Below are positions 3,930 through 12,880 of a DNA stretch of 64,000 bases, in pieces. The DNA is taken from assembly GCA_965183885.1 (NCBI GenBank), contig OZ238992.1, positions 2,049,548 through 2,113,547 on the forward strand, written 5' to 3'. The translations under genes were made by a program, and so were the position numbers. The notes beneath the pieces were generated by a model. It had not been told where the DNA came from, searched no databases, and saw only the letters and a program-made list of their open reading frames with translations. Each line of letters starts with the position of its first letter. Position 1 is the stretch's first letter. This DNA comes from Flavobacteriales bacterium. GTDB taxonomy: Bacteria; Bacteroidota; Bacteroidia; Flavobacteriales; BACL11.

Positions 3930-5624
3930 ATGAGCAAACAGATAATTGAATGTGTACCTAACATCTCAGAAGGGAGAGATGCTGAGAAGATAAAAATAAT
4001 TTCTCAAATAGTTGAAGAGATTGATGGCGTAAAGCTCCTAAATGTAGATCCAGGAAAAGCAACCAACCGTACGGTAATTACTTTTGTTGGAGAACCACAA
4101 CCTGTAATTGATGCTGCTTTTTTACTAATAAAGAAAGCACAAGAACTTATTGATATGAGTAAGCACTCAGGAGAACACCCAAGAATGGGAGCTACTGATG
4201 TTTGTCCACTAGTACCAATTGCAAATATTAGTATGGAAGAAACTGCTGATTGGGCACATAAACTAGGAGAAAGAGTAGGTGCTGAACTAGGGATTCCTGT
4301 TTATCATTATGAAGCAGCAGCAAAAGAAGAAAAGCGTAAAAACTTAGCCAATTGCCGACAAGGAGAATATGAAGGCTTGGCAAAGAAATTAGTAGATGCT
4401 GATTGGAAACCAGATTTTGGTCCTGCTGAATTTAACCAATCAGTAGAAAAATCAGGTGCAACTGCTATCTCAGCTCGTGATTTTTTAGTAGCCTATAACA
4501 TCAACTTAAATACTACATCAACCAGAAGAGCAAATGCTGTAGCCTTTGATATTCGTGAAGCAGGAAGAATAAAAAGAGAAGGTGGAACACTCTCTGGAAA
4601 AATAATAAAAGATGAAAATGGAAACCCTTTAAAAACTCCAGGGCTTTTTAAAGCTGTAAAAGGAATTGGATGGTTTATTGAAGAATATGGTGTAGCACAA
4701 ATTTCTTACAACCTTACAAATATCAACATCTCCCCTTTACATGAAGTATTTGATAAAACTTGTGAACGCTCTATAGCAAGAGGAATGCGTGTTACAGGAT
4801 CGGAGCTTGTAGGTTTAGTTCCTAAAAAAGTATTGATTGATGCAGGGAAACATTTCCTTAAAAAACAAGAACGATCAACAGGAATACACGAAAGTGAAAT
4901 TATAAAGATTGCAATTAAAACTTTAGGATTGGATGAACTAGCTCCTTTTGATCCTCAAGAAAGAATAATTGAGTATATGCTAGAAGCTGATGCTAAAAAA
5001 CCTCTAGTAAATATGACGCTTACTGATTTTGCAAACGAAACAGCAAGTGAAAGCCCTGCCCCTGGTGGTGGTTCTATCTCGGCTTATTGTGGTGCTATGG
5101 GTGTTGCTTTAGGAACTATGGTTGCCAATCTTTCAGCTCACAAAAGAGGTTGGGATGATAGATGGCAAGAATTCTCTAATTGGGCAGAAAAAGGAATTGC
5201 TTACCAAAATACTTTATTGGATTTAGTAGATGAAGATACTAATGCCTTTAATAAAATTATGGATGCTTTCCGACTACCCAAAGATAGTGAAGCAGACAAA
5301 GCAAAAAGACAAGAAGCAATACAAGAAGCAACAAAATATGCTATCCTCACTCCTTTTAAGGTAATGGAAACAGCTTATAACTCTATGGAGGTAATGAAGG
5401 CTATGGCTGAGTTTGGAAACCCTAACTCGGTAACTGATGCTGGAGTAGGTGCATTATGTGCGCGTACTGCTGTAATTGGTGCTTTCCTTAATGTAAAAAT
5501 TAACTGTGGCGATTGTGATGATAAAGCTTTTGTTGCAGATATCTTAAATAAAGGACAAAAATTAGTTGATGCTGCTTGTGCTTTGGAAGATGAAATTATG
5601 AAAATTACTAACTCTAAAATATAA
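3930..5624 (+). CDS. ftcD: Glutamate formimidoyltransferase / formiminotetrahydrofolate cyclodeaminase fusion
   Basis: [37 protein letters not shown]; C-terminal cyclodeaminase [20 protein letters not shown]. Confidence 0.93.
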
Positions 5625-6054: not shown

Positions 6055-6306
6055 ATGGAATTGCAAAAAGTAACTTGGAAAGATTGGGCTAAATTTATTT
6101 CAGTAATGATAGTCTTTATTATTGGAATGATAATTATGCTTATTTATAAGATAGAGAATTATTGGATCTGGACAGGCTATATTATTTTATGGACCTGGTT
6201 AGAAATGAAAATAGCTAAAAATATTCATCTTAAATGGTGGGTTTGGGTATTAATACTTTTAGGTTTATCCTTATTGGACCTATTAATTATTAGTTTGATT
6301 AACTAA
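6055..6306 (+). CDS. Small hypothetical membrane protein
   Basis: 83 aa with three hydrophobic Trp-rich segments; TAAATTTG promoter-like element upstream. Confidence 0.6.
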   Translation: MELQKVTWKDWAKFISVMIVFIIGMIIMLIYKIENYWIWTGYIILWTWLEMKIAKNIHLKWWVWVLILLGLSLLDLLIISLIN

Positions 6307-6476: not shown

Positions 6477-6845
6477 ATGAATGATACAAGCCATCATGAC
6501 GAGCGTATTTCAAAAATGATATTCGCTTCAATATATCCTCTTTATCTCAATAGAATTAAGAAAAAAGGAAGAACAGAAGAAGAATTAAATAAAGTTATTG
6601 AATGGTTAACTGGATTTAATGAAGAAAAACTAACAGAGCTTATAAAAGAAGAGGTAACTTTTGAGTCATTCTTTAAAAATTCGGCATTAAACCCAAATGC
6701 TCAATTAATTAAAGGTGTAATCTGTGGCTATAGAATTGAAAAAATTCAAAATCCATTAACACAACAGGTAAGGTATTTGGACAAGCTAGTAGATGAATTA
6801 GCAAAAGGTCGTAAAATGGAAAAGATCTTAAGAACAGTTAAATAA
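6477..6845 (+). CDS. DUF2200 family protein
   Basis: MIFASIYPLY..KGRTEEEL..VIEWLTG...ITGV-like IKGVICGYRIEKI...RYLDKLVDELAKG. Confidence 0.85.
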   Translation: MNDTSHHDERISKMIFASIYPLYLNRIKKKGRTEEELNKVIEWLTGFNEEKLTELIKEEVTFESFFKNSALNPNAQLIKGVICGYRIEKIQNPLTQQVRYLDKLVDELAKGRKMEKILRTVK

Positions 6846-6904
6846 TAGCTCTTAAAATACTAAAAGATTAAATTGAGAGAAAAGAATATTAATCAATAAT
6901 AAAA

Positions 6905-7831
6905 ATGGAAGAGCGAAAAGAGAAAGTGCCAGAAAAAAGTAAGATTAAAAAAAACCTTCACCCTAGAAATAAAAATAGGAAACAATATGATTTAAAGGAA
7001 CTTTTAAAAGTAGTTCCTGAATTAAAGAAACATATAAAACCCAATAAATATGGAGAGGATACTATTCAATTTTCTAACCCTGAAGCAGTAAAACTACTGA
7101 ACAAAGCAATACTAAGTAGTTATTATGAAATAAAAAACTGGGACTTTCCTGACACCAATCTATGCCCTCCTATCCCTGGTAGAGCTGACTACATACATTA
7201 TATTGCTGATTTATTAGGTAATAAGAAAAACATAACTTGCCTTGATATTGGTGTTGGTGCCAACTGTATCTACCCTATCCTAGGGATTAGCGAGTACAAT
7301 TGGAGCTTTATTGCTACTGATGTAAATACTGATGCTATTTCCTCTGCAAAAAAAATTATAGAATCAAACCCTAGCCTTAAAGGAAAAATAGAGTTTCGAT
7401 TACAAAAAGATGAAAATAACATCTTTAAAAACATTATCAAACCTACAGATAAGATTGATGTAAGTATTTGTAATCCCCCTTTCCATGCATCAAAAAAAGA
7501 TGCCCTTAAAGGAAGTATGCGTAAAGTAAGAAACCTTACAGGAAAACGATCAGAGAAGATAAAACTCAACTTTTCAGGAATGGCTAATGAACTTGTTTAT
7601 GAAGGTGGAGAAAAACAGTTTATACAAAACATGATAATTGAAAGTGTTAACTATGCTAAAAACTGTCTATGGTTCACTTCTCTAGTTTCTAATGAAAGAA
7701 ACCTAAATAGATTCTATAGCTCATTAGAAAAATATGGAGCAACTGATGTAAAAACAATCCACATGGGTACAGGGAATAAAATCAGCAGAATAGTAGCTTG
7801 GACTTTTCAAAATAAGCAAGAACACAAATAG
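6905..7831 (+). CDS. rlmF: 23S rRNA m6A1618 methyltransferase
   Basis: LHPRNK, LCPPIPGRADYIHY, LDIGVGANCIYPILG, CNPPFH, EGGE, GNKISRIVAWTF. Confidence 0.95.
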   Translation: MEERKEKVPEKSKIKKNLHPRNKNRKQYDLKELLKVVPELKKHIKPNKYGEDTIQFSNPEAVKLLNKAILSSYYEIKNWDFPDTNLCPPIPGRADYIHYIADLLGNKKNITCLDIGVGANCIYPILGISEYNWSFIATDVNTDAISSAKKIIESNPSLKGKIEFRLQKDENNIFKNIIKPTDKIDVSICNPPFHASKKDALKGSMRKVRNLTGKRSEKIKLNFSGMANELVYEGGEKQFIQNMIIESVNYAKNCLWFTSLVSNERNLNRFYSSLEKYGATDVKTIHMGTGNKISRIVAWTFQNKQEHK

Positions 7832-7873
7832 TAGTAACAGCTAATAAAACTATATTTACGCAAAAATTAAAAA

Positions 7874-8239
7874 ATGAATACTAAAAAAAACAAAATAATC
7901 TACTGGATATCAACTGGACTATTAACCATTTTAATGTTAGTCTCAGCAAGTATGTATATTTTCAATAATGAAATGGCAAGCGAAAGCTTTATAAAATTAG
8001 GGTTTCCTACCTATATTATTTACCCATTAGCAATTGCAAAAATTTTAGGGGTAATTGCTATTCTAACAAAAAAATCACAGACCTTAAAAGAATGGGCATA
8101 TGCTGGATTCTTCTTTAACTTTATACTTGGTGCATCTGCTCACTTATATATAAATGATGGAGAATTTATCCCAGTAGTAGTAGCAATTCTATTTTTAATG
8201 ACGTCTTATAAATTTGATAAAAAGGTTTTCAATAACTAA
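7874..8239 (+). CDS. DoxX family membrane protein
   Basis: IIYWISTGLL...LGFPTY...AKILG...LKEWAYAGFFF...AH. Confidence 0.85.
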   Translation: MNTKKNKIIYWISTGLLTILMLVSASMYIFNNEMASESFIKLGFPTYIIYPLAIAKILGVIAILTKKSQTLKEWAYAGFFFNFILGASAHLYINDGEFIPVVVAILFLMTSYKFDKKVFNN

Positions 8240-8258
8240 TAGTTTCCTTAAAATAATA

Positions 8259-9017
8259 ATGAAAATTAAAGAATATATAGAGCGAATAAAATACAAAGGA
8301 GAATTAGCCGCTGACCTTAATATTCTTAAGAAATTACAAGAAGTTCATCTTTTAACTATTCCTTTTGAAAACCTAGATATTCATTATGGGAAGCCTATTG
8401 ATTTAGACGTCGATGAATTTTATAAAAAAATAGTTCAGAATAATAGAGGTGGTTTTTGTTATGAGTTAAATGGCTTATTTTATGCTTTATTAAAAGCTAT
8501 TGGATATAATGTAAAAATGATTTCTGCACGAGTTTATAATAGTACTAAAAAAGAATTTGGACTAGAGTATGATCATTTAGCAATAGTAGCTGAATTAAAT
8601 AAAGTAGAATATCTAGTTGATGTAGGCTTTGGAGAATTTGCTTTTAACCCTCTAAAAATTGAACTTAATACCATTCAATCAGATTCTAGAGGTAATTTTA
8701 TAATTGAAGAATATAATAATAAATATTATATAGTTTCAAAAATTAAAGATGAAGTAAAGACTCCTGAATATATCTTTAAAAATGAAGCTAGAGAATTAAG
8801 TGACTTCAAAGAGATGTCTTTGCACAACCAAACAAGCCCTAACTCCCATTTTACAAAAAAGAAGCTTATTAGCAAACCAACTAATAATGGAAGAATTACA
8901 ATTACAGGAAATACTTTAAAAATAACTGAAGCAGGAAAGACTATTACAGAGAAGGCCTTCAAAGAAAATGAATTTAACGATTATCTGAAGAAATGGTTTA
9001 ACATGCATATAAACTAA
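8259..9017 (+). CDS. Arylamine N-acetyltransferase family protein
   Basis: IPFENLDI, RGGFCYELNGLF (catalytic Cys), DHLAI (His), YLVDVGFG (Asp); ATG at 8259 preferred over 8214. Confidence 0.9.
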   Translation: MKIKEYIERIKYKGELAADLNILKKLQEVHLLTIPFENLDIHYGKPIDLDVDEFYKKIVQNNRGGFCYELNGLFYALLKAIGYNVKMISARVYNSTKKEFGLEYDHLAIVAELNKVEYLVDVGFGEFAFNPLKIELNTIQSDSRGNFIIEEYNNKYYIVSKIKDEVKTPEYIFKNEARELSDFKEMSLHNQTSPNSHFTKKKLISKPTNNGRITITGNTLKITEAGKTITEKAFKENEFNDYLKKWFNMHIN

Positions 9018-9029
9018 ATAATAAAAATT

Positions 9030-9491
9030 ATGCAAAATCAATTTAATACCTTTTTTACTACTACCCTATCTAACGCTTTAAAAGACTTAAACGAGGCTAA
9101 TAAACCCCAATGGGGAAGTATGACGGCTAAACAAATGCTTATTCATTTAACACAAGGTAGTAAAATGATGCATTTAGAAGGAATTAAATTAGTAGTAAAA
9201 GAAAAACATATAGAAAAAGCTATTGCATTTTTATATTCTGAAAAACCTATAAATAAAGGAATAGAAATACCAAAAGACATAGGCTATGATTTTAATGATG
9301 GAATTACAAAAGATATTGAAGTTTTAAAAACAGAACTAATTAATGCCACAAACATTATGTATGCTTTCTTTATTAATAACCCTGATTTTAAGGCTATACA
9401 CCCTTATTTTGGGAACTTAAGTGCTGAGCAATGGCTTTTATTCCAAAAGAAACATTTTACACATCATTTAAGCCAATTTAGATTATTATAA
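9030..9491 (+). CDS. DUF1569 / DinB-like protein
   Basis: PQWGSMTAKQMLIHL...HPYFGNLSAEQW...KHFTHHLSQF. Confidence 0.8.
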   Translation: MQNQFNTFFTTTLSNALKDLNEANKPQWGSMTAKQMLIHLTQGSKMMHLEGIKLVVKEKHIEKAIAFLYSEKPINKGIEIPKDIGYDFNDGITKDIEVLKTELINATNIMYAFFINNPDFKAIHPYFGNLSAEQWLLFQKKHFTHHLSQFRLL

Positions 9492-9522
9492 ATAAATATC
9501 TTCAAATTAAATTCTTAACCAT

Positions 9523-9554
9523 AAAAAAGCCTCATTAAATAATGAGGCTTTTTT
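9523..9554. terminator. Bidirectional intrinsic terminator
   Basis: AAAAAAGCCTCATT-AAAT-AATGAGGCTTTTTT. Confidence 0.85.
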
Positions 9555-9988
9555 ATAGTGTAGAGTTTCTTTAATTATTAAAAAATTTCCTTGCTTAGTC
9601 TAAATTAGGGGATTAAATATTAAAAAAAACTATTATTTTTTATAATTCAACCAAATTTTAATCTTTAAAATCGAGGCTAATATATAAAATTATTTAGCAT
9701 AAACACAAGTAAATCAAGCTCTTTTAATCTTATTTAAATATTAACTTATTAAAAAAACACCTGAAACAAGACATATTTTCCTTTGTTTAAACATATAAAA
9801 TTATAAATTTAGAATATTTCTATTTACTAGTAGTAAATTTTACTATTCTTAATGTATTAAAAAGATAATTATTTGTCTAAACATATAAATTTATTTTAAG
9901 GTGATTTTTAAAGGGTTATCGTGTTAAAAAGATAATAAAAAAGTTAATATCTTTATTTAAAGGTTTTCATATTTTAAAAATATAAAAC

Positions 9989-10019
9989 AAAAAAACCCAA
10001 ACATTGCTGTTTGGGTTTT
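9989..10019 (-). terminator. Intrinsic terminator downstream of tRNA-Ser
   Basis: AAAACCCAAACA-TTGC-TGTTTGGGTTTT hairpin followed by a T-tract on the minus strand. Confidence 0.85.
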
Positions 10020-10020
10020 G

Positions 10021-10105
10021 CGGAGAGAGAGGGATTCGAACCCCCGGTACATTGCTGTACAATGGTTTTCAAGACCACCGCATTCGACCACTCTGCCATC
10101 TCTCC
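10021..10105 (-). tRNA. tRNA-Ser (anticodon TGA), 85 nt, CCA not encoded
   Basis: Minus strand GGAGAGATGGCAGAGTGGTCGAATGCGGTGGTCTTGAAAACCATTGTACAGCAATGTACCGGGGGTTCGAATCCCTCTCTCTCCG: acceptor stem, long variable arm, GTTCGAATC T-loop. Confidence 0.97.
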
Positions 10106-10322
10106 GATTGCGGACTGCAAAAATAGAAATATTTTCAAATTACAAACACTTTTATAATCTTTTTTAAAGGAATAAATTATCCTAATAAATAAGTTTTTCT
10201 TACAGACTTAATTTACAATATTTTAGGTGAAAAAATAAATAACTATACTCCTGTAAAATTATCTCTTTTAATTCTACAAACAGATACTATTGATAACTAA
10301 TAGAAATTATATATTTGCCAAA

Positions 10323-11180
10323 ATGATTACTAAGCTACTCTATTATACCATACTCCTGCCGATTTCTTATCTGCCCTACTCTATTTTATACTATATCTCT
10401 GATTTTCTATTTATAGTTATTTATCAATTATTAGGCTACCGTAAAGCAGTTGTTTTCTCAAATTTAAGTAACTCTTTCCCTGATAAGACAACAGCAGAGC
10501 TAAAAGAAATAATGGCTGATTTTTACCGCCATTTATGCGATTTAATTGTAGAGAGCGTTAAAGGGTTTACTATAAGCAAAAAACAACTTAAAAAAAGACT
10601 AGTAGTATTAAATCCTGAGTTTACTAATAAATATGCTAAGGAAGGAAAAGATGTTATTTTTGTAGGAGGACATTATAACAATTGGGAAATTTATGCTCAA
10701 GGTTTTGCAATGTATTCTACTCATAAATGCATAGGAATTTACAAGCCTTTATCTAATGTCTTTTTTAATACTAAGATGTCAAAATCCAGATCAAAATTTG
10801 GAACACATCTAGTGCCTATGCGTCAAACAAAAAAGATATTTTCAGAACAAGGAAAACCTAAGGCACTTGTTTTTGGTTCGGACCAAAACCCTGCAAATCC
10901 TAAAAGAGCATATTGGATGCAGTTTTTAAACCAAGATACTGGAGTGTTATTTGGAGTTGAGAAATATGCTAAAGAATACGATTGGCCAGTGATATACATT
11001 AGTATTAATAAAGTAAAAAGAGGGCATTATACTGTTGAATATTCTCTAATTACCGATAATCCTACCACTGAGCCTTATGGTAAAATTACAGAAGATTATA
11101 CCAAGGTATTAGAACAGCAAATTATTAATGAGCCTAAATATTGGCTTTGGTCACACAAACGATGGAAGCACAAAAGATAA
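10323..11180 (+). CDS. Lipid A biosynthesis (LpxL/HtrB-type) lysophospholipid acyltransferase
   Basis: GGHYNNWE (HxxxE), IYKPLSN, SDQNP, FLNQDT...GVEKYA, YWLWSHKRWK; ATG at 10323 directly follows a TATATTTG element. Confidence 0.85.
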   Translation: MITKLLYYTILLPISYLPYSILYYISDFLFIVIYQLLGYRKAVVFSNLSNSFPDKTTAELKEIMADFYRHLCDLIVESVKGFTISKKQLKKRLVVLNPEFTNKYAKEGKDVIFVGGHYNNWEIYAQGFAMYSTHKCIGIYKPLSNVFFNTKMSKSRSKFGTHLVPMRQTKKIFSEQGKPKALVFGSDQNPANPKRAYWMQFLNQDTGVLFGVEKYAKEYDWPVIYISINKVKRGHYTVEYSLITDNPTTEPYGKITEDYTKVLEQQIINEPKYWLWSHKRWKHKR

Positions 11181-12178
11181 AAATAGCTGTTGTTGTTTTG
11201 AATTGGAATGGAAAAGCATGGTTAGCACAATTCTTACCTACTTTAACAAAACACTCTGATGAGGCTACTGTATTTGTTGCAGATAACGCTTCTACTGATG
11301 ATTCCGTAGCTTTTGTACAAAGTCATTTTCCTAGTGTTAAAGTTATTGTAAATAAAACTAATGGTGGTTATGCCAAAGGTTATAATGAGGCTTTAAAGCA
11401 AATAAATGCTGAGTACTTTGTGCTGATTAACTCAGATATTGAAGTAAGTAAAAATTGGCTCTCTCCTATTATTAGTTTGATGGATGCTGATGCTAAAATT
11501 GCTGCTTGTCAACCTAAGATACTAGATTATAACAATAAAAATGCTTTTGAATATGCTGGAGCTAGTGGTGGTTTTATTGACAATCTAGGTTATCCTTTTT
11601 GCCGAGGAAGAATATTTGATGATTTAGAACAAGATAAAGGACAGTATAATGATGTTACAGAAATATTCTGGGCTACAGGTGCTTGTCTTTTTGTACGTGC
11701 TGCTCATTTCCTAGAGGTTGGTGGCTTGGATGAAGACTTTTTTGCCCACCAAGAGGAAATTGACCTCTGTTGGCGTTTAAAGAATAAAGGTTATAAAGTA
11801 ATGGTACAGCCAGAATCAGTAGTCTATCATGTTGGTGGTGGTACTCTTAATGCCTCCTCTCCTTTTAAAACACACTTAAACTTTAGGAACAACCTGTTTA
11901 TGTTGTTTAAGAATTTACCTGCTACTACTCTATTACTAACAATACCTATGCGCTTGGTTTTAGATGGTGTAGCTGCGCTTACACTACTAAGTAAGCCTAA
12001 AGGAGTACAGCATTTAATTGCTGTAGCAAAAGCACACTTTGCTTTTTATTTTGAAATACCAAAACTAATTAGCAAACGCCAAAAGATTAAACAACAACAT
12101 AATTTGCTTGGAAAAGTAAATTATTCTATTCTGTTAAAGAATAAAATTAAAGGGATAAAGAGATTTTCTGAGTTGTAG
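11162..12178 (+). CDS. Glycosyltransferase family 2
   Basis: VVVLNWNG, ADNASTDDS, NGGYAKGYN, LINSDIEV, WATGACLFVR, HQEEIDLCWRL, YHVGGGTL. Confidence 0.92.
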   Translation: MEAQKIKIAVVVLNWNGKAWLAQFLPTLTKHSDEATVFVADNASTDDSVAFVQSHFPSVKVIVNKTNGGYAKGYNEALKQINAEYFVLINSDIEVSKNWLSPIISLMDADAKIAACQPKILDYNNKNAFEYAGASGGFIDNLGYPFCRGRIFDDLEQDKGQYNDVTEIFWATGACLFVRAAHFLEVGGLDEDFFAHQEEIDLCWRLKNKGYKVMVQPESVVYHVGGGTLNASSPFKTHLNFRNNLFMLFKNLPATTLLLTIPMRLVLDGVAALTLLSKPKGVQHLIAVAKAHFAFYFEIPKLISKRQKIKQQHNLLGKVNYSILLKNKIKGIKRFSEL

Positions 12179-12184
12179 AAAAGA

Positions 12185-12216
12185 TGTCATCCTGAACGAA
12201 TGTGAATGGATCTACA
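12185..12216 (+). repeat. REP-like imperfect palindrome (left inverted repeat)
   Basis: TGTCATCCTGAACGAATGTGAATGGATCTACA; stem ATCC/GGAT. Confidence 0.75.
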
Positions 12217-12536
12217 AATTCTTTATTTCCAATTCCTCAATAGTATCATTTAAAAATTTCCAATCTTTATTAAAAGATGAGATTAAGTCTATTTTTCTTT
12301 CTCTTTTCCAACCTTTAATTTGTTTTTCTCTTGCTATTGCTTGGTTAATATTTTCAAATCTCTCAAAGAATAAAAGATAGTAGCAAGAATATCTTCCAGC
12401 AAAATGTTTTTGTTCACCAAGAGCATCTTCTCTATGCTGATGTAATCTAACAACTAAGTCATTCGTAACTCCAGTATATAAAACAGATTTGCTTTTATTG
12501 GTTAATGATATAAATAAAGTAATTATGGTCTTTCAT
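12212..12536 (-). pseudogene. GIY-YIG nuclease family gene with a +1 frameshift near 12506
   Basis: Removing one base gives MKDHNYFIYILTNKSKSVLYTGVTNDLVVRLHQHRE...FAGRY..YYLLFFERFENINQAIAREKQIKGWKRERKIDLI..FNKDW...KNL* (107 aa); absent from the ORF track. Confidence 0.88.
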
Positions 12537-12544
12537 ATTTTATC

Positions 12545-12574
12545 TGTAGATTCTTCATCTCATTCAGAATGACA
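12545..12574 (-). repeat. REP-like imperfect palindrome (right inverted repeat)
   Basis: Reverse complement TGTCATTCTGAATGAGATGAAGAATCTACA; stem ATTCT/AGAAT. Confidence 0.75.
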
Positions 12575-12580
12575 ATAAAA

Positions 12581-12880
12581 CTATTTAATTAAGTCTGTTA
12601 CTAGCGTTGTATTAAGCAGTATATAAGCTAAAATAAAAACAACAAAAAAAGTAATTGAAAGTAACCTTATTGACTTTATTTGTTTCTTTTTATTATCAAA
12701 AAACAATTTTTCTCTAATTTTTAATAATTGCTCTGGAGTTGCTTTTTTAATATCTGTTTTCTCTGAGTCAAAAGTATTTTTATAGGTTTTTCTTATCTCA
12801 GATAATGATTTTTTACCTCGAAGTAAACTCCTGTTCACTTTCAAACTCCTAATCATATCTGCTGCATGTCCTGACCCCAT
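12581..12880 (-). CDS. Hypothetical protein with C-terminal transmembrane helix
   Basis: 99 aa, basic N-terminus (MGSGHAADMIRSLKVNRSLL), one hydrophobic segment; begins 2 nt after the aroQ stop. Confidence 0.7.
   Translation of the reverse strand: MGSGHAADMIRSLKVNRSLLRGKKSLSEIRKTYKNTFDSEKTDIKKATPEQLLKIREKLFFDNKKKQIKSIRLLSITFFVVFILAYILLNTTLVTDLIK

Follow-up and report, generated by a model that had tools for sequence, protein, structure and literature searches.

A probable Ssn/SRM module with AT-rich hairpins at a variable junction of convergent genes in a Flavobacteriales bacterium

A GIY-YIG nuclease gene of about 100 codons that lies between two inverted hairpin repeats raises the question of what kind of unit the gene and its repeats form, and whether that unit moves. 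This arrangement occupies positions 12185-12574 of the 64,000-nucleotide stretch of Flavobacteriales DNA analysed here (the window), which belongs to a genome of 2.11 Mb and 32.6% G+C (G000, contig C1). Two relatives with intact orthologs, G015 of the same genus and G024 of another genus, served for comparison. The features are as follows.

11141-12178, plus strand: GT2 (family-2 glycosyltransferase) gene, the left neighbour, kept in 32 of 41 relatives
12185-12216, plus strand: 3′-side SRM-type hairpin, TGTCATCCTGAACGAATGTGAATGGATCTACA (sequence inspection; comparison with G015 and G024)
12212-12536, minus strand: putative ssn pseudogene, single-domain GIY-YIG, Ssn family (Pfam, alignments)
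12504-12505, minus strand: +1 frameshift site (alignment A3 with the intact orthologs)
12545-12574, minus strand: 5′-side SRM-type hairpin, TGTCATTCTGAATGAGATGAAGAATCTACA (sequence inspection; comparison with G015 and G024)
12581-12880, minus strand: 99-aa ORF with a C-terminal hydrophobic segment, the right neighbour (tblastn match in G000 only)

The left repeat starts 7 nt past the GT2 stop codon, with the 3′ end of GT2 abutting the cassette, and the right repeat lies between the ssn ATG, 8 nt past its end, and the stop codon of the 99-aa ORF, 6 nt ahead of its start. The left hairpin is made up of a TGTC tag (12185-12188), the stem ATCC(T)/(T)GGAT, a loop that begins GA and a conserved C after the stem at 12212, and the right hairpin of a TGTC tag (12574-12571), the stem ATTCT/AGAAT and the loop GAATGAGATGA. 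The repeats are inverted and both tags point outward from the ssn gene. Sequence inspection thus upheld the inverted TGTC-tagged hairpins that a first-pass annotation had placed at 12185-12216 and 12574-12545, and the junction of convergent genes at which it had set this copy is that of GT2 and aroQ. The 99-aa ORF gave only a sub-threshold match to DUF2207_C, and in the relatives examined by tblastn nothing corresponds to it between GT2 and aroQ; it is probably another accessory gene at a variable junction. Upstream of the acyltransferase-GT2 pair, a tRNA gene lies at 10021-10105 of the window on the minus strand (Rfam RF00005, 60.7 bits).

On the minus strand, the ATG at 12536-12534 opens MKDHNYFIYIINQ followed by a stop codon, and the TAG at 12214-12212 closes the next frame, which reads ...LTNKSKSVLYTGVTNDL...AREKQIKGW...KDWKFL...KNL and stop or, more fully, ...LTNKSKSVLYTGVTNDLVVRLHQHRE...AIAREKQIKGWKRERK...NKDWKFLNDTIEELEIKNL and stop, one frame over from the first. 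Read through, the two frames give a protein of 102-107 aa that matches the Pfam GIY-YIG domain (PF01541) at E=5e-15 over residues 5-81. The Pfam search found no domain besides GIY-YIG in this protein, and an NCBIfam search of it returned no family above the cut-off. The frames and the Pfam match bear out the 107-codon GIY-YIG gene that had been proposed at 12536-12212, and the extra base suspected near 12506 is real in the assembled sequence: alignment with the intact G015 and G024 orthologs shows one additional T in CAT(T)AACC at 12504/12505, where G000 has TT and the orthologs have a single T. The frameshift falls between the codons of both catalytic tyrosines (Y9 and Y20 in read-through numbering) and splits Y9 from the remainder of the protein. 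The stop codon within the left repeat, also pointed out earlier, is present in G000 (TAG, 12214-12212); the ortholog ORFs stop five codons earlier. The ssn ORF is under strong purifying selection, the G000 branch included (dN/dS 0.044-0.048, dS 0.46-0.73), and at a dN/dS of about 0.045 the frameshift must therefore either have arisen very recently or be a sequencing error. Metagenomes were scanned for the site in both its allelic forms, with no match. Judging from the sequence, the G000 gene is most likely inactive through the +1 frameshift between its catalytic tyrosines. It is the sole small GIY-YIG gene of G000, and the one other GIY-YIG match lies in a 603-aa open frame that is taken to be UvrC.

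A pairing of such genes with such repeats has been described as the Ssn nuclease and its NTS/SRM repeats (Chenal et al., Nat Commun 2025, PMC11893778). In many phyla, the 94-aa single-domain GIY-YIG gene ssnA (CDD cd10448) is flanked by NTS, the Neisseria repeat (CGTCATTCCCGCGMAVGCGGGAATCYRG), and the SRMs related to it (PMC11893778). The Ssn enzymes that have been characterised, from Neisseria, N. elongata, N. wadsworthii and Wolbachia, bind CGTCAT-stem-loop-stem-ATC hairpins solely as ssDNA and cut a few nucleotides upstream, and SsnA is inactive on dsDNA, on RNA and on the reverse strand (PMC11893778). Cleavage by SsnA requires Y6, Y17 and E64; the C that follows the palindrome is the most critical nucleotide for binding, and the three nucleotides preceding the palindrome for cleavage (PMC11893778).

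We found that the locus in G000 shares several features of this family. The read-through protein is a single-domain GIY-YIG protein of well under 150 aa, and it matched ten NTS-flanked homologs of the genus Neisseria by blastp at E=1e-25 to 9e-19 and 38-45% identity, beyond the E<1e-10 that the published work used as its threshold for SsnA homology (PMC11893778). These homologs were drawn from the genus of N. lactamica NS19 as fitting the description of SsnA, and three of the ten are 94 aa long and carry Y6, Y17 and E64, as described for SsnA. Ssn homologs occur in 12 of 41 Neisseria genomes in a genus-wide search, all of them embedded in NTS repeats. Y9, Y20, R30, H34 and E70 are invariant in alignment A2, in which Y9, Y20 and E70 align with the three catalytic residues. 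Both sides of the gene carry inverted hairpins in which an HGTCWY tag comes first and a C follows the palindrome, a layout also seen at locus L134 and at the Neisseria loci. The hairpins begin with (C/T)GTCAT and end with ATC as the published ones do, further copies are dispersed in intergenic DNA, and gene and repeats co-occur across genomes. We conclude that the locus is very probably an Ssn/SRM module, a gene of about 100 codons for a GIY-YIG protein set between inverted hairpins of the kind that its family recognises. The earlier proposal that a small GIY-YIG gene and (C/T)GTC hairpins form a functional pair is supported by this homology and by the co-occurrence described below, and the pairing itself was already in print (PMC11893778).

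The hairpins differ in detail from the published ones. NTS has a 9-bp GC-rich stem and a 3-nt loop, whereas the stems here are AT-rich and 4-5 bp long, and the loops measure 11-13 nt in the flanking pair and up to 24-25 nt elsewhere, mostly bracketed by GA...GA. The genome holds about 13 copies rather than hundreds, the gene is frameshifted, unlike ssnA, and in this host the module has no known link to natural transformation. The published SRM search sequence, HGTCWYN(0-2)YYVSBRHN(0-5)WNVSBRGN(0-2)RNCYNB (PMC11893778), does not match either flanking hairpin; the left is three substitutions away and the right is unmatched within three. The motif demands G/C at stem positions, and these stems are AT-rich. 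This string is a search heuristic and not a biochemical definition, and we class the locus as an Ssn/SRM module whose hairpin is an AT-rich variant. Since AT-rich flavobacterial hairpins fall outside the published motif, surveys based on it may miss such copies in Bacteroidota.

A scan of public genomes for the exact NTS 28-mer matched more than 120 contigs in many phyla. When the NTS-adjacent sequence was searched for homologs of the read-through protein, tblastn of the first 80 loci found none. Two homologs came from a profile search that took in all 120 loci, one at E=1e-21 in the MAG of a gammaproteobacterium and one at E=2e-17 in that of a member of the Anaerolineales, and in each the gene and hairpins are laid out as here. 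The contigs that carry the exact 28-nt consensus (L052-L171) are labelled Proteobacteria, Chloroflexi, Planctomycetes, Nitrospirae, Gemmatimonadetes and others, and such conservation across phyla appears striking for a non-coding hairpin. Other small GIY-YIG proteins are set apart from the read-through protein by similarity. UPF0213 structures in the PDB, which are distant, matched it at only E=0.008; UPF0213 presumably corresponds to cd10456. A 91-aa GIY-YIG protein of N. lactamica NS19 (L172:1489-1764) was considered as an Ssn candidate and set aside, as it has no NTS nearby and no blastp match to the read-through protein; it belongs to a different small GIY-YIG subfamily.

Conservation and pairing of the repeats were examined in G000 and its relatives. 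The left hairpin is 100% identical to its G015 copy and 97% identical to its G024 copy, and the right hairpin is about 97% identical to both. A search of the whole genome for more copies, as the first-pass annotation had advised, found about 13 by eye, about 11 of them beyond the flanking pair. The strict pattern TGTCATNNNGAN{6,18}GANNNATCT, in which only the tag, the GA...GA edges of the loop and the ATCT tail are set, matched eight times in the 2.1 Mb of G000, and its reversed control did not match. In ssn-positive genomes, all three stem positions that the pattern leaves free are Watson-Crick paired in 77 of 85 copies, with 12 different triplets, and none of the eight stray matches in ssn-negative genomes is complementary at these positions. 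The covariation of the stems, first remarked from the flanking pair, thus extends well beyond it. Folded as free single strands, both flanking hairpins had energies of -1.2 to -1.7 kcal/mol, no better than those of shuffled sequence (z about 0.4-0.7), the left stem having only four perfect pairs, and support for pairing therefore comes from covariation and not from energy. A search of the whole window against Rfam at the gathering threshold returned the tRNA only, and at E<=10 the interval 12100-12700 gave only chance-level matches. A hammerhead-like ribozyme core in CTGAAYGA...GAA was rejected by inspection, the spacing being unlike CUGANGA and stem I having no room.

All of the roughly 13 copies in G000 are intergenic, although a crude ORF proxy puts the coding share of the genome at about 94%. 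Three gene-less inverted pairs with outward tags are present, at 95073-95144, 196194-196258 and 1764902-1764989; the spacers measure 2-34 bp between full repeats in the latter two and 8 bp between scanned cores in the first. The pair at 196194-196258 is made of the same two hairpin classes as those flanking a G015 paralog (L010). Gene-less pairs of this kind could be cassettes with an internal deletion or acceptor sites that stand empty.

Eleven of the 13 copies lie 3-60 nt past a stop codon in the sense orientation, and a position downstream of genes is typical of REPs (Di Nocera et al., BMC Genomics 2013, PMC3733652). This placement would suit elements that act at the RNA level, as 3′-end stabilisers or terminators of the neighbouring genes, with the GIY-YIG gene between two of them by chance. 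We consider such a reading hardly credible, as the stems have no trailing T-run, the fold is weak, there is no Rfam match and SsnA binds ssDNA and not RNA (PMC11893778). The distribution of the hairpins also speaks against it: their presence tracks that of ssn across genomes, and they flank ssn homologs class-wide.

This distribution is as follows. An ssn homolog is present in 9 of 41 relatives, and at least two hairpins were found in six of these nine compared to none of the 32 ssn-negative relatives (Fisher p=1.9e-5). The six hairpin-bearing genomes are G000 with 8 hairpins, G011 with 2, G015 with 16, G024 with 35, G026 with 2 and G030 with 22, all ssn-positive, and the 32 ssn-negative genomes have zero or one pattern match each, non-complementary in every case. 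Every ssn homolog of the relatives that was inspected is flanked by tagged hairpins. An enrichment of hairpins near small GIY-YIG genes, which the first-pass annotation had proposed to test, was observed in a class-level sample, where a tagged hairpin with a perfect stem lies no more than 200 bp from the gene at 23 of 29 ssn loci (12 on both sides, 11 on one) against a background expectation of 0.056 per flank. The family is common in the phylum, with one to eight homologs in about half of 201 sampled genomes, and patchy within the genus, where 3 of 16 genomes carry it.

We compared the module with three further kinds of element. The CGTC-tagged REP superfamily was reported to lack a dedicated transposase, just as the first-pass annotation had stated, and the species that carry it include the flavobacterium G. 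forsetii (PMC3733652). These REPs are, like the hairpins here, short tagged stem-loops that lie mostly downstream of genes and often form inverted dimers; they differ in that the tag here is TGTC and that no partner gene was found for them (PMC3733652). That CGTC REPs are SRMs is stated neither in that study nor by Chenal et al., who cite neither Di Nocera nor RAYTs (PMC11893778). Our data support a link between this "transposase-less" superfamily and Ssn-related motifs.

REPtrons resemble the module in that inverted copies of a hairpin, which by analogy would be recognised as ssDNA, stand on either side of a single-copy gene, in the genome-wide dispersal of the repeats and in a possible domesticated or selfish role. 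They are built on a RAYT transposase, an HUH/Y1 enzyme of the IS200/IS605-like kind with a covalent intermediate, and on a GTAG tag, whereas the only domain found here is a hydrolytic GIY-YIG domain and the tag is TGTC. By definition, then, the unit is no REPtron; its description as REPtron-like holds for the partnership of nuclease and hairpin and for the insertion-sequence-like layout, and it fails for the enzyme and the tag. GIY-YIG homing endonucleases such as I-TevI, Seg/Mob and I-BmoI share the catalytic domain and a suspected selfish lifestyle, but they are about 250 aa long, have separate DNA-binding domains, cut dsDNA and reside in introns or phage genomes. The protein here has one domain and a chromosomal intergenic context, and it scores 17 bits against TIGR01453, for which the cut-off is 56.

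The first-pass annotation had gone further and read the locus as a minimal nuclease-driven mobile element bounded exactly by its hairpins. As an autonomous mini-transposon, the GIY-YIG enzyme would nick its own terminal hairpins and so excise, insert and multiply the cassette together with gene-less hairpins. The layout, with a gene between inverted, outward-tagged repeats, is that of an insertion sequence, a resemblance already remarked for NTS-ssnA-NTS, where mobility was left as a hypothesis (PMC11893778). Presence and absence at two sites speak for movement of some kind. GT2 and the convergent aroQ meet directly, with no hairpins between them, in G005, G013, G019 and G023, and other relatives have different intervening genes. 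These empty junctions, which had been suggested as something to look for beside GT2, argue that the cassette was inserted at a convergent junction that varies among genomes, and from such comparisons we regard the module as accessory DNA inserted between GT2 and aroQ. A paralog cassette of about 490 bp in G015 (L014, one of three others there) is likewise absent at the syntenic position 206065-206082 of G000, which also lies between convergent genes. The restriction of hairpins to ssn-bearing genomes, the patchy occurrence of the gene within the genus and the three gene-less inverted pairs are also in keeping with a mini-transposon. The best hint here that hairpins disperse is an identical 28-nt hairpin at non-syntenic loci in G000 and G015.

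Several observations weigh against exact, hairpin-bounded transposition. There is no target-site duplication at the G000 site, a point on which we agree with the first-pass annotation, and none at 206065-206082 compared with L014, whose insertion reaches 46 and 19 bp beyond its hairpins. Neither site thus offers the combination that would mark an insertion sequence, a target-site duplication with defined ends common to several copies, and the gene is single-copy in G000. The four paralogs of G015 are 52-93% identical to the G000 protein, and are therefore old rather than recent copies made by transposition; each has its own hairpin class, which suggests that enzyme and hairpin pairs co-evolve. 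The orthologous cassette of G015 occupies the same site as that of G000, and the dS of about 0.46 between the two ssn genes fits vertical descent. We know of no strand-transfer step among GIY-YIG enzymes, which are hydrolytic nucleases, so a mini-transposon would need a host joining activity.

The G024 copy, at a different locus, adds to these objections in that it carries about 130 bp of the GT2 3′ end and lies within a duplication of another gene's end. At this locus (L048), a 1.6-kb patch is bracketed by a 110-bp direct duplication (4387-4496 and 6069-6178, 90% identical) that consists of the 3′ end of another gene. Inside the patch are a 261-aa ORF, hairpins, ssn and the GT2 3′ fragment. 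The locus looks like a recombination patchwork rather than a clean hairpin-bounded jump. The GT2 fragment is 78.5% identical to the GT2 gene of G024 itself and 81-82% identical to the genes of genus g1, and by these values it could derive from either. Recent transfer was considered for this 86%-identical copy and rejected, as its dS is 0.6 and its dN/dS 0.05 and constraint explains the identity. Taking the evidence from all three genomes together, the claim of a mobile element with exact hairpin boundaries was not borne out, and we think an autonomous mini-transposon unlikely.

Copying between hairpin loci would be another way to place the gene. Under such homing or recombination, ssDNA breaks beside hairpins are repaired from another hairpin locus, and the gene, with or without donor flanks, is copied between pre-existing pairs. 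The gene-less pairs resemble empty acceptor sites, and the one at 196194-196258 shares both hairpin classes of L010, but internal deletion would equally yield gene-less pairs. No syntenic filled-versus-empty hairpin pair was found, and the G015 hairpin that is identical to the one at G000 196194 is non-syntenic. The donor flank in the G024 copy could be co-conversion, and the ssn ORF with its hairpins is 90-100% identical across lineages in which the flanks are 77-83% identical, an excess that purifying selection explains (dN/dS 0.045, dS 0.46-0.73). SsnA, moreover, does not cut dsDNA in vitro (PMC11893778). We judge homing to be quite improbable, more so than the mini-transposon.

The locus as an Ssn/SRM module can be given a predicted mode of action by homology with the Neisseria, N. 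elongata, N. wadsworthii and Wolbachia enzymes. An intact Ssn protein would bind the TGTCAT-stem-loop-stem-ATC hairpin only in single-stranded DNA, would then read the stem sequence and the C after the stem, and would finally cut that strand a few nucleotides to the 5′ side of the tag. By analogy with Neisseria transformation, the module could restrict hairpin-bearing ssDNA that enters the cell or becomes exposed, or it could propagate itself. We tentatively put forward, as a proposal no stronger than the mini-transposon, that the approximately 390-bp Ssn/SRM modules of Flavobacteriales and their gene-less hairpins spread to the 3′ ends of genes through cleavage of ssDNA followed by host joining or recombination. 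If these modules were mobile, the orphan CGTC/TGTC-tagged REP superfamily would gain its missing mobilising enzyme, and a hydrolytic GIY-YIG nuclease would join the enzymes known to drive prokaryotic DNA transposition.

As the pairing of a GIY-YIG gene with (C/T)GTC hairpins was published in 2025 (PMC11893778), this instance is in itself no discovery. What is new is modest: the AT-rich variant of the hairpin, an explicit connection of CGTC REPs with SRMs, and several small genomes in which mobility could be tested. These genomes of marine Flavobacteriales, which hold only 2-35 hairpins, show clean filled and empty sites and carry several diverged paralogs that each have their own hairpin class, make a tractable system for asking whether Ssn modules move.

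Two minor observations concern the DNA around the hairpins. At the G015 locus (L049; G015:C2:630000-642000), the interval from the ssn cassette to aroQ (6678-10845) is taken up by unrelated DNA of about 4.2 kb that includes further hairpins, where G000 has the 99-aa ORF only. A dispersed intergenic module of TAGTTGTTAGTTG-like units also occurs at 94142-94168, 1377409-1377472, 1767171-1767204 and 1765007-1765033 of G000 contig C1, at L014:1416-1451 and at about 1000-1045 of L186. The module may form a repeat family of its own or belong to a longer composite element, and in at least three cases it stands directly 5′ of the TGTC tag of a hairpin with an A-run between them.
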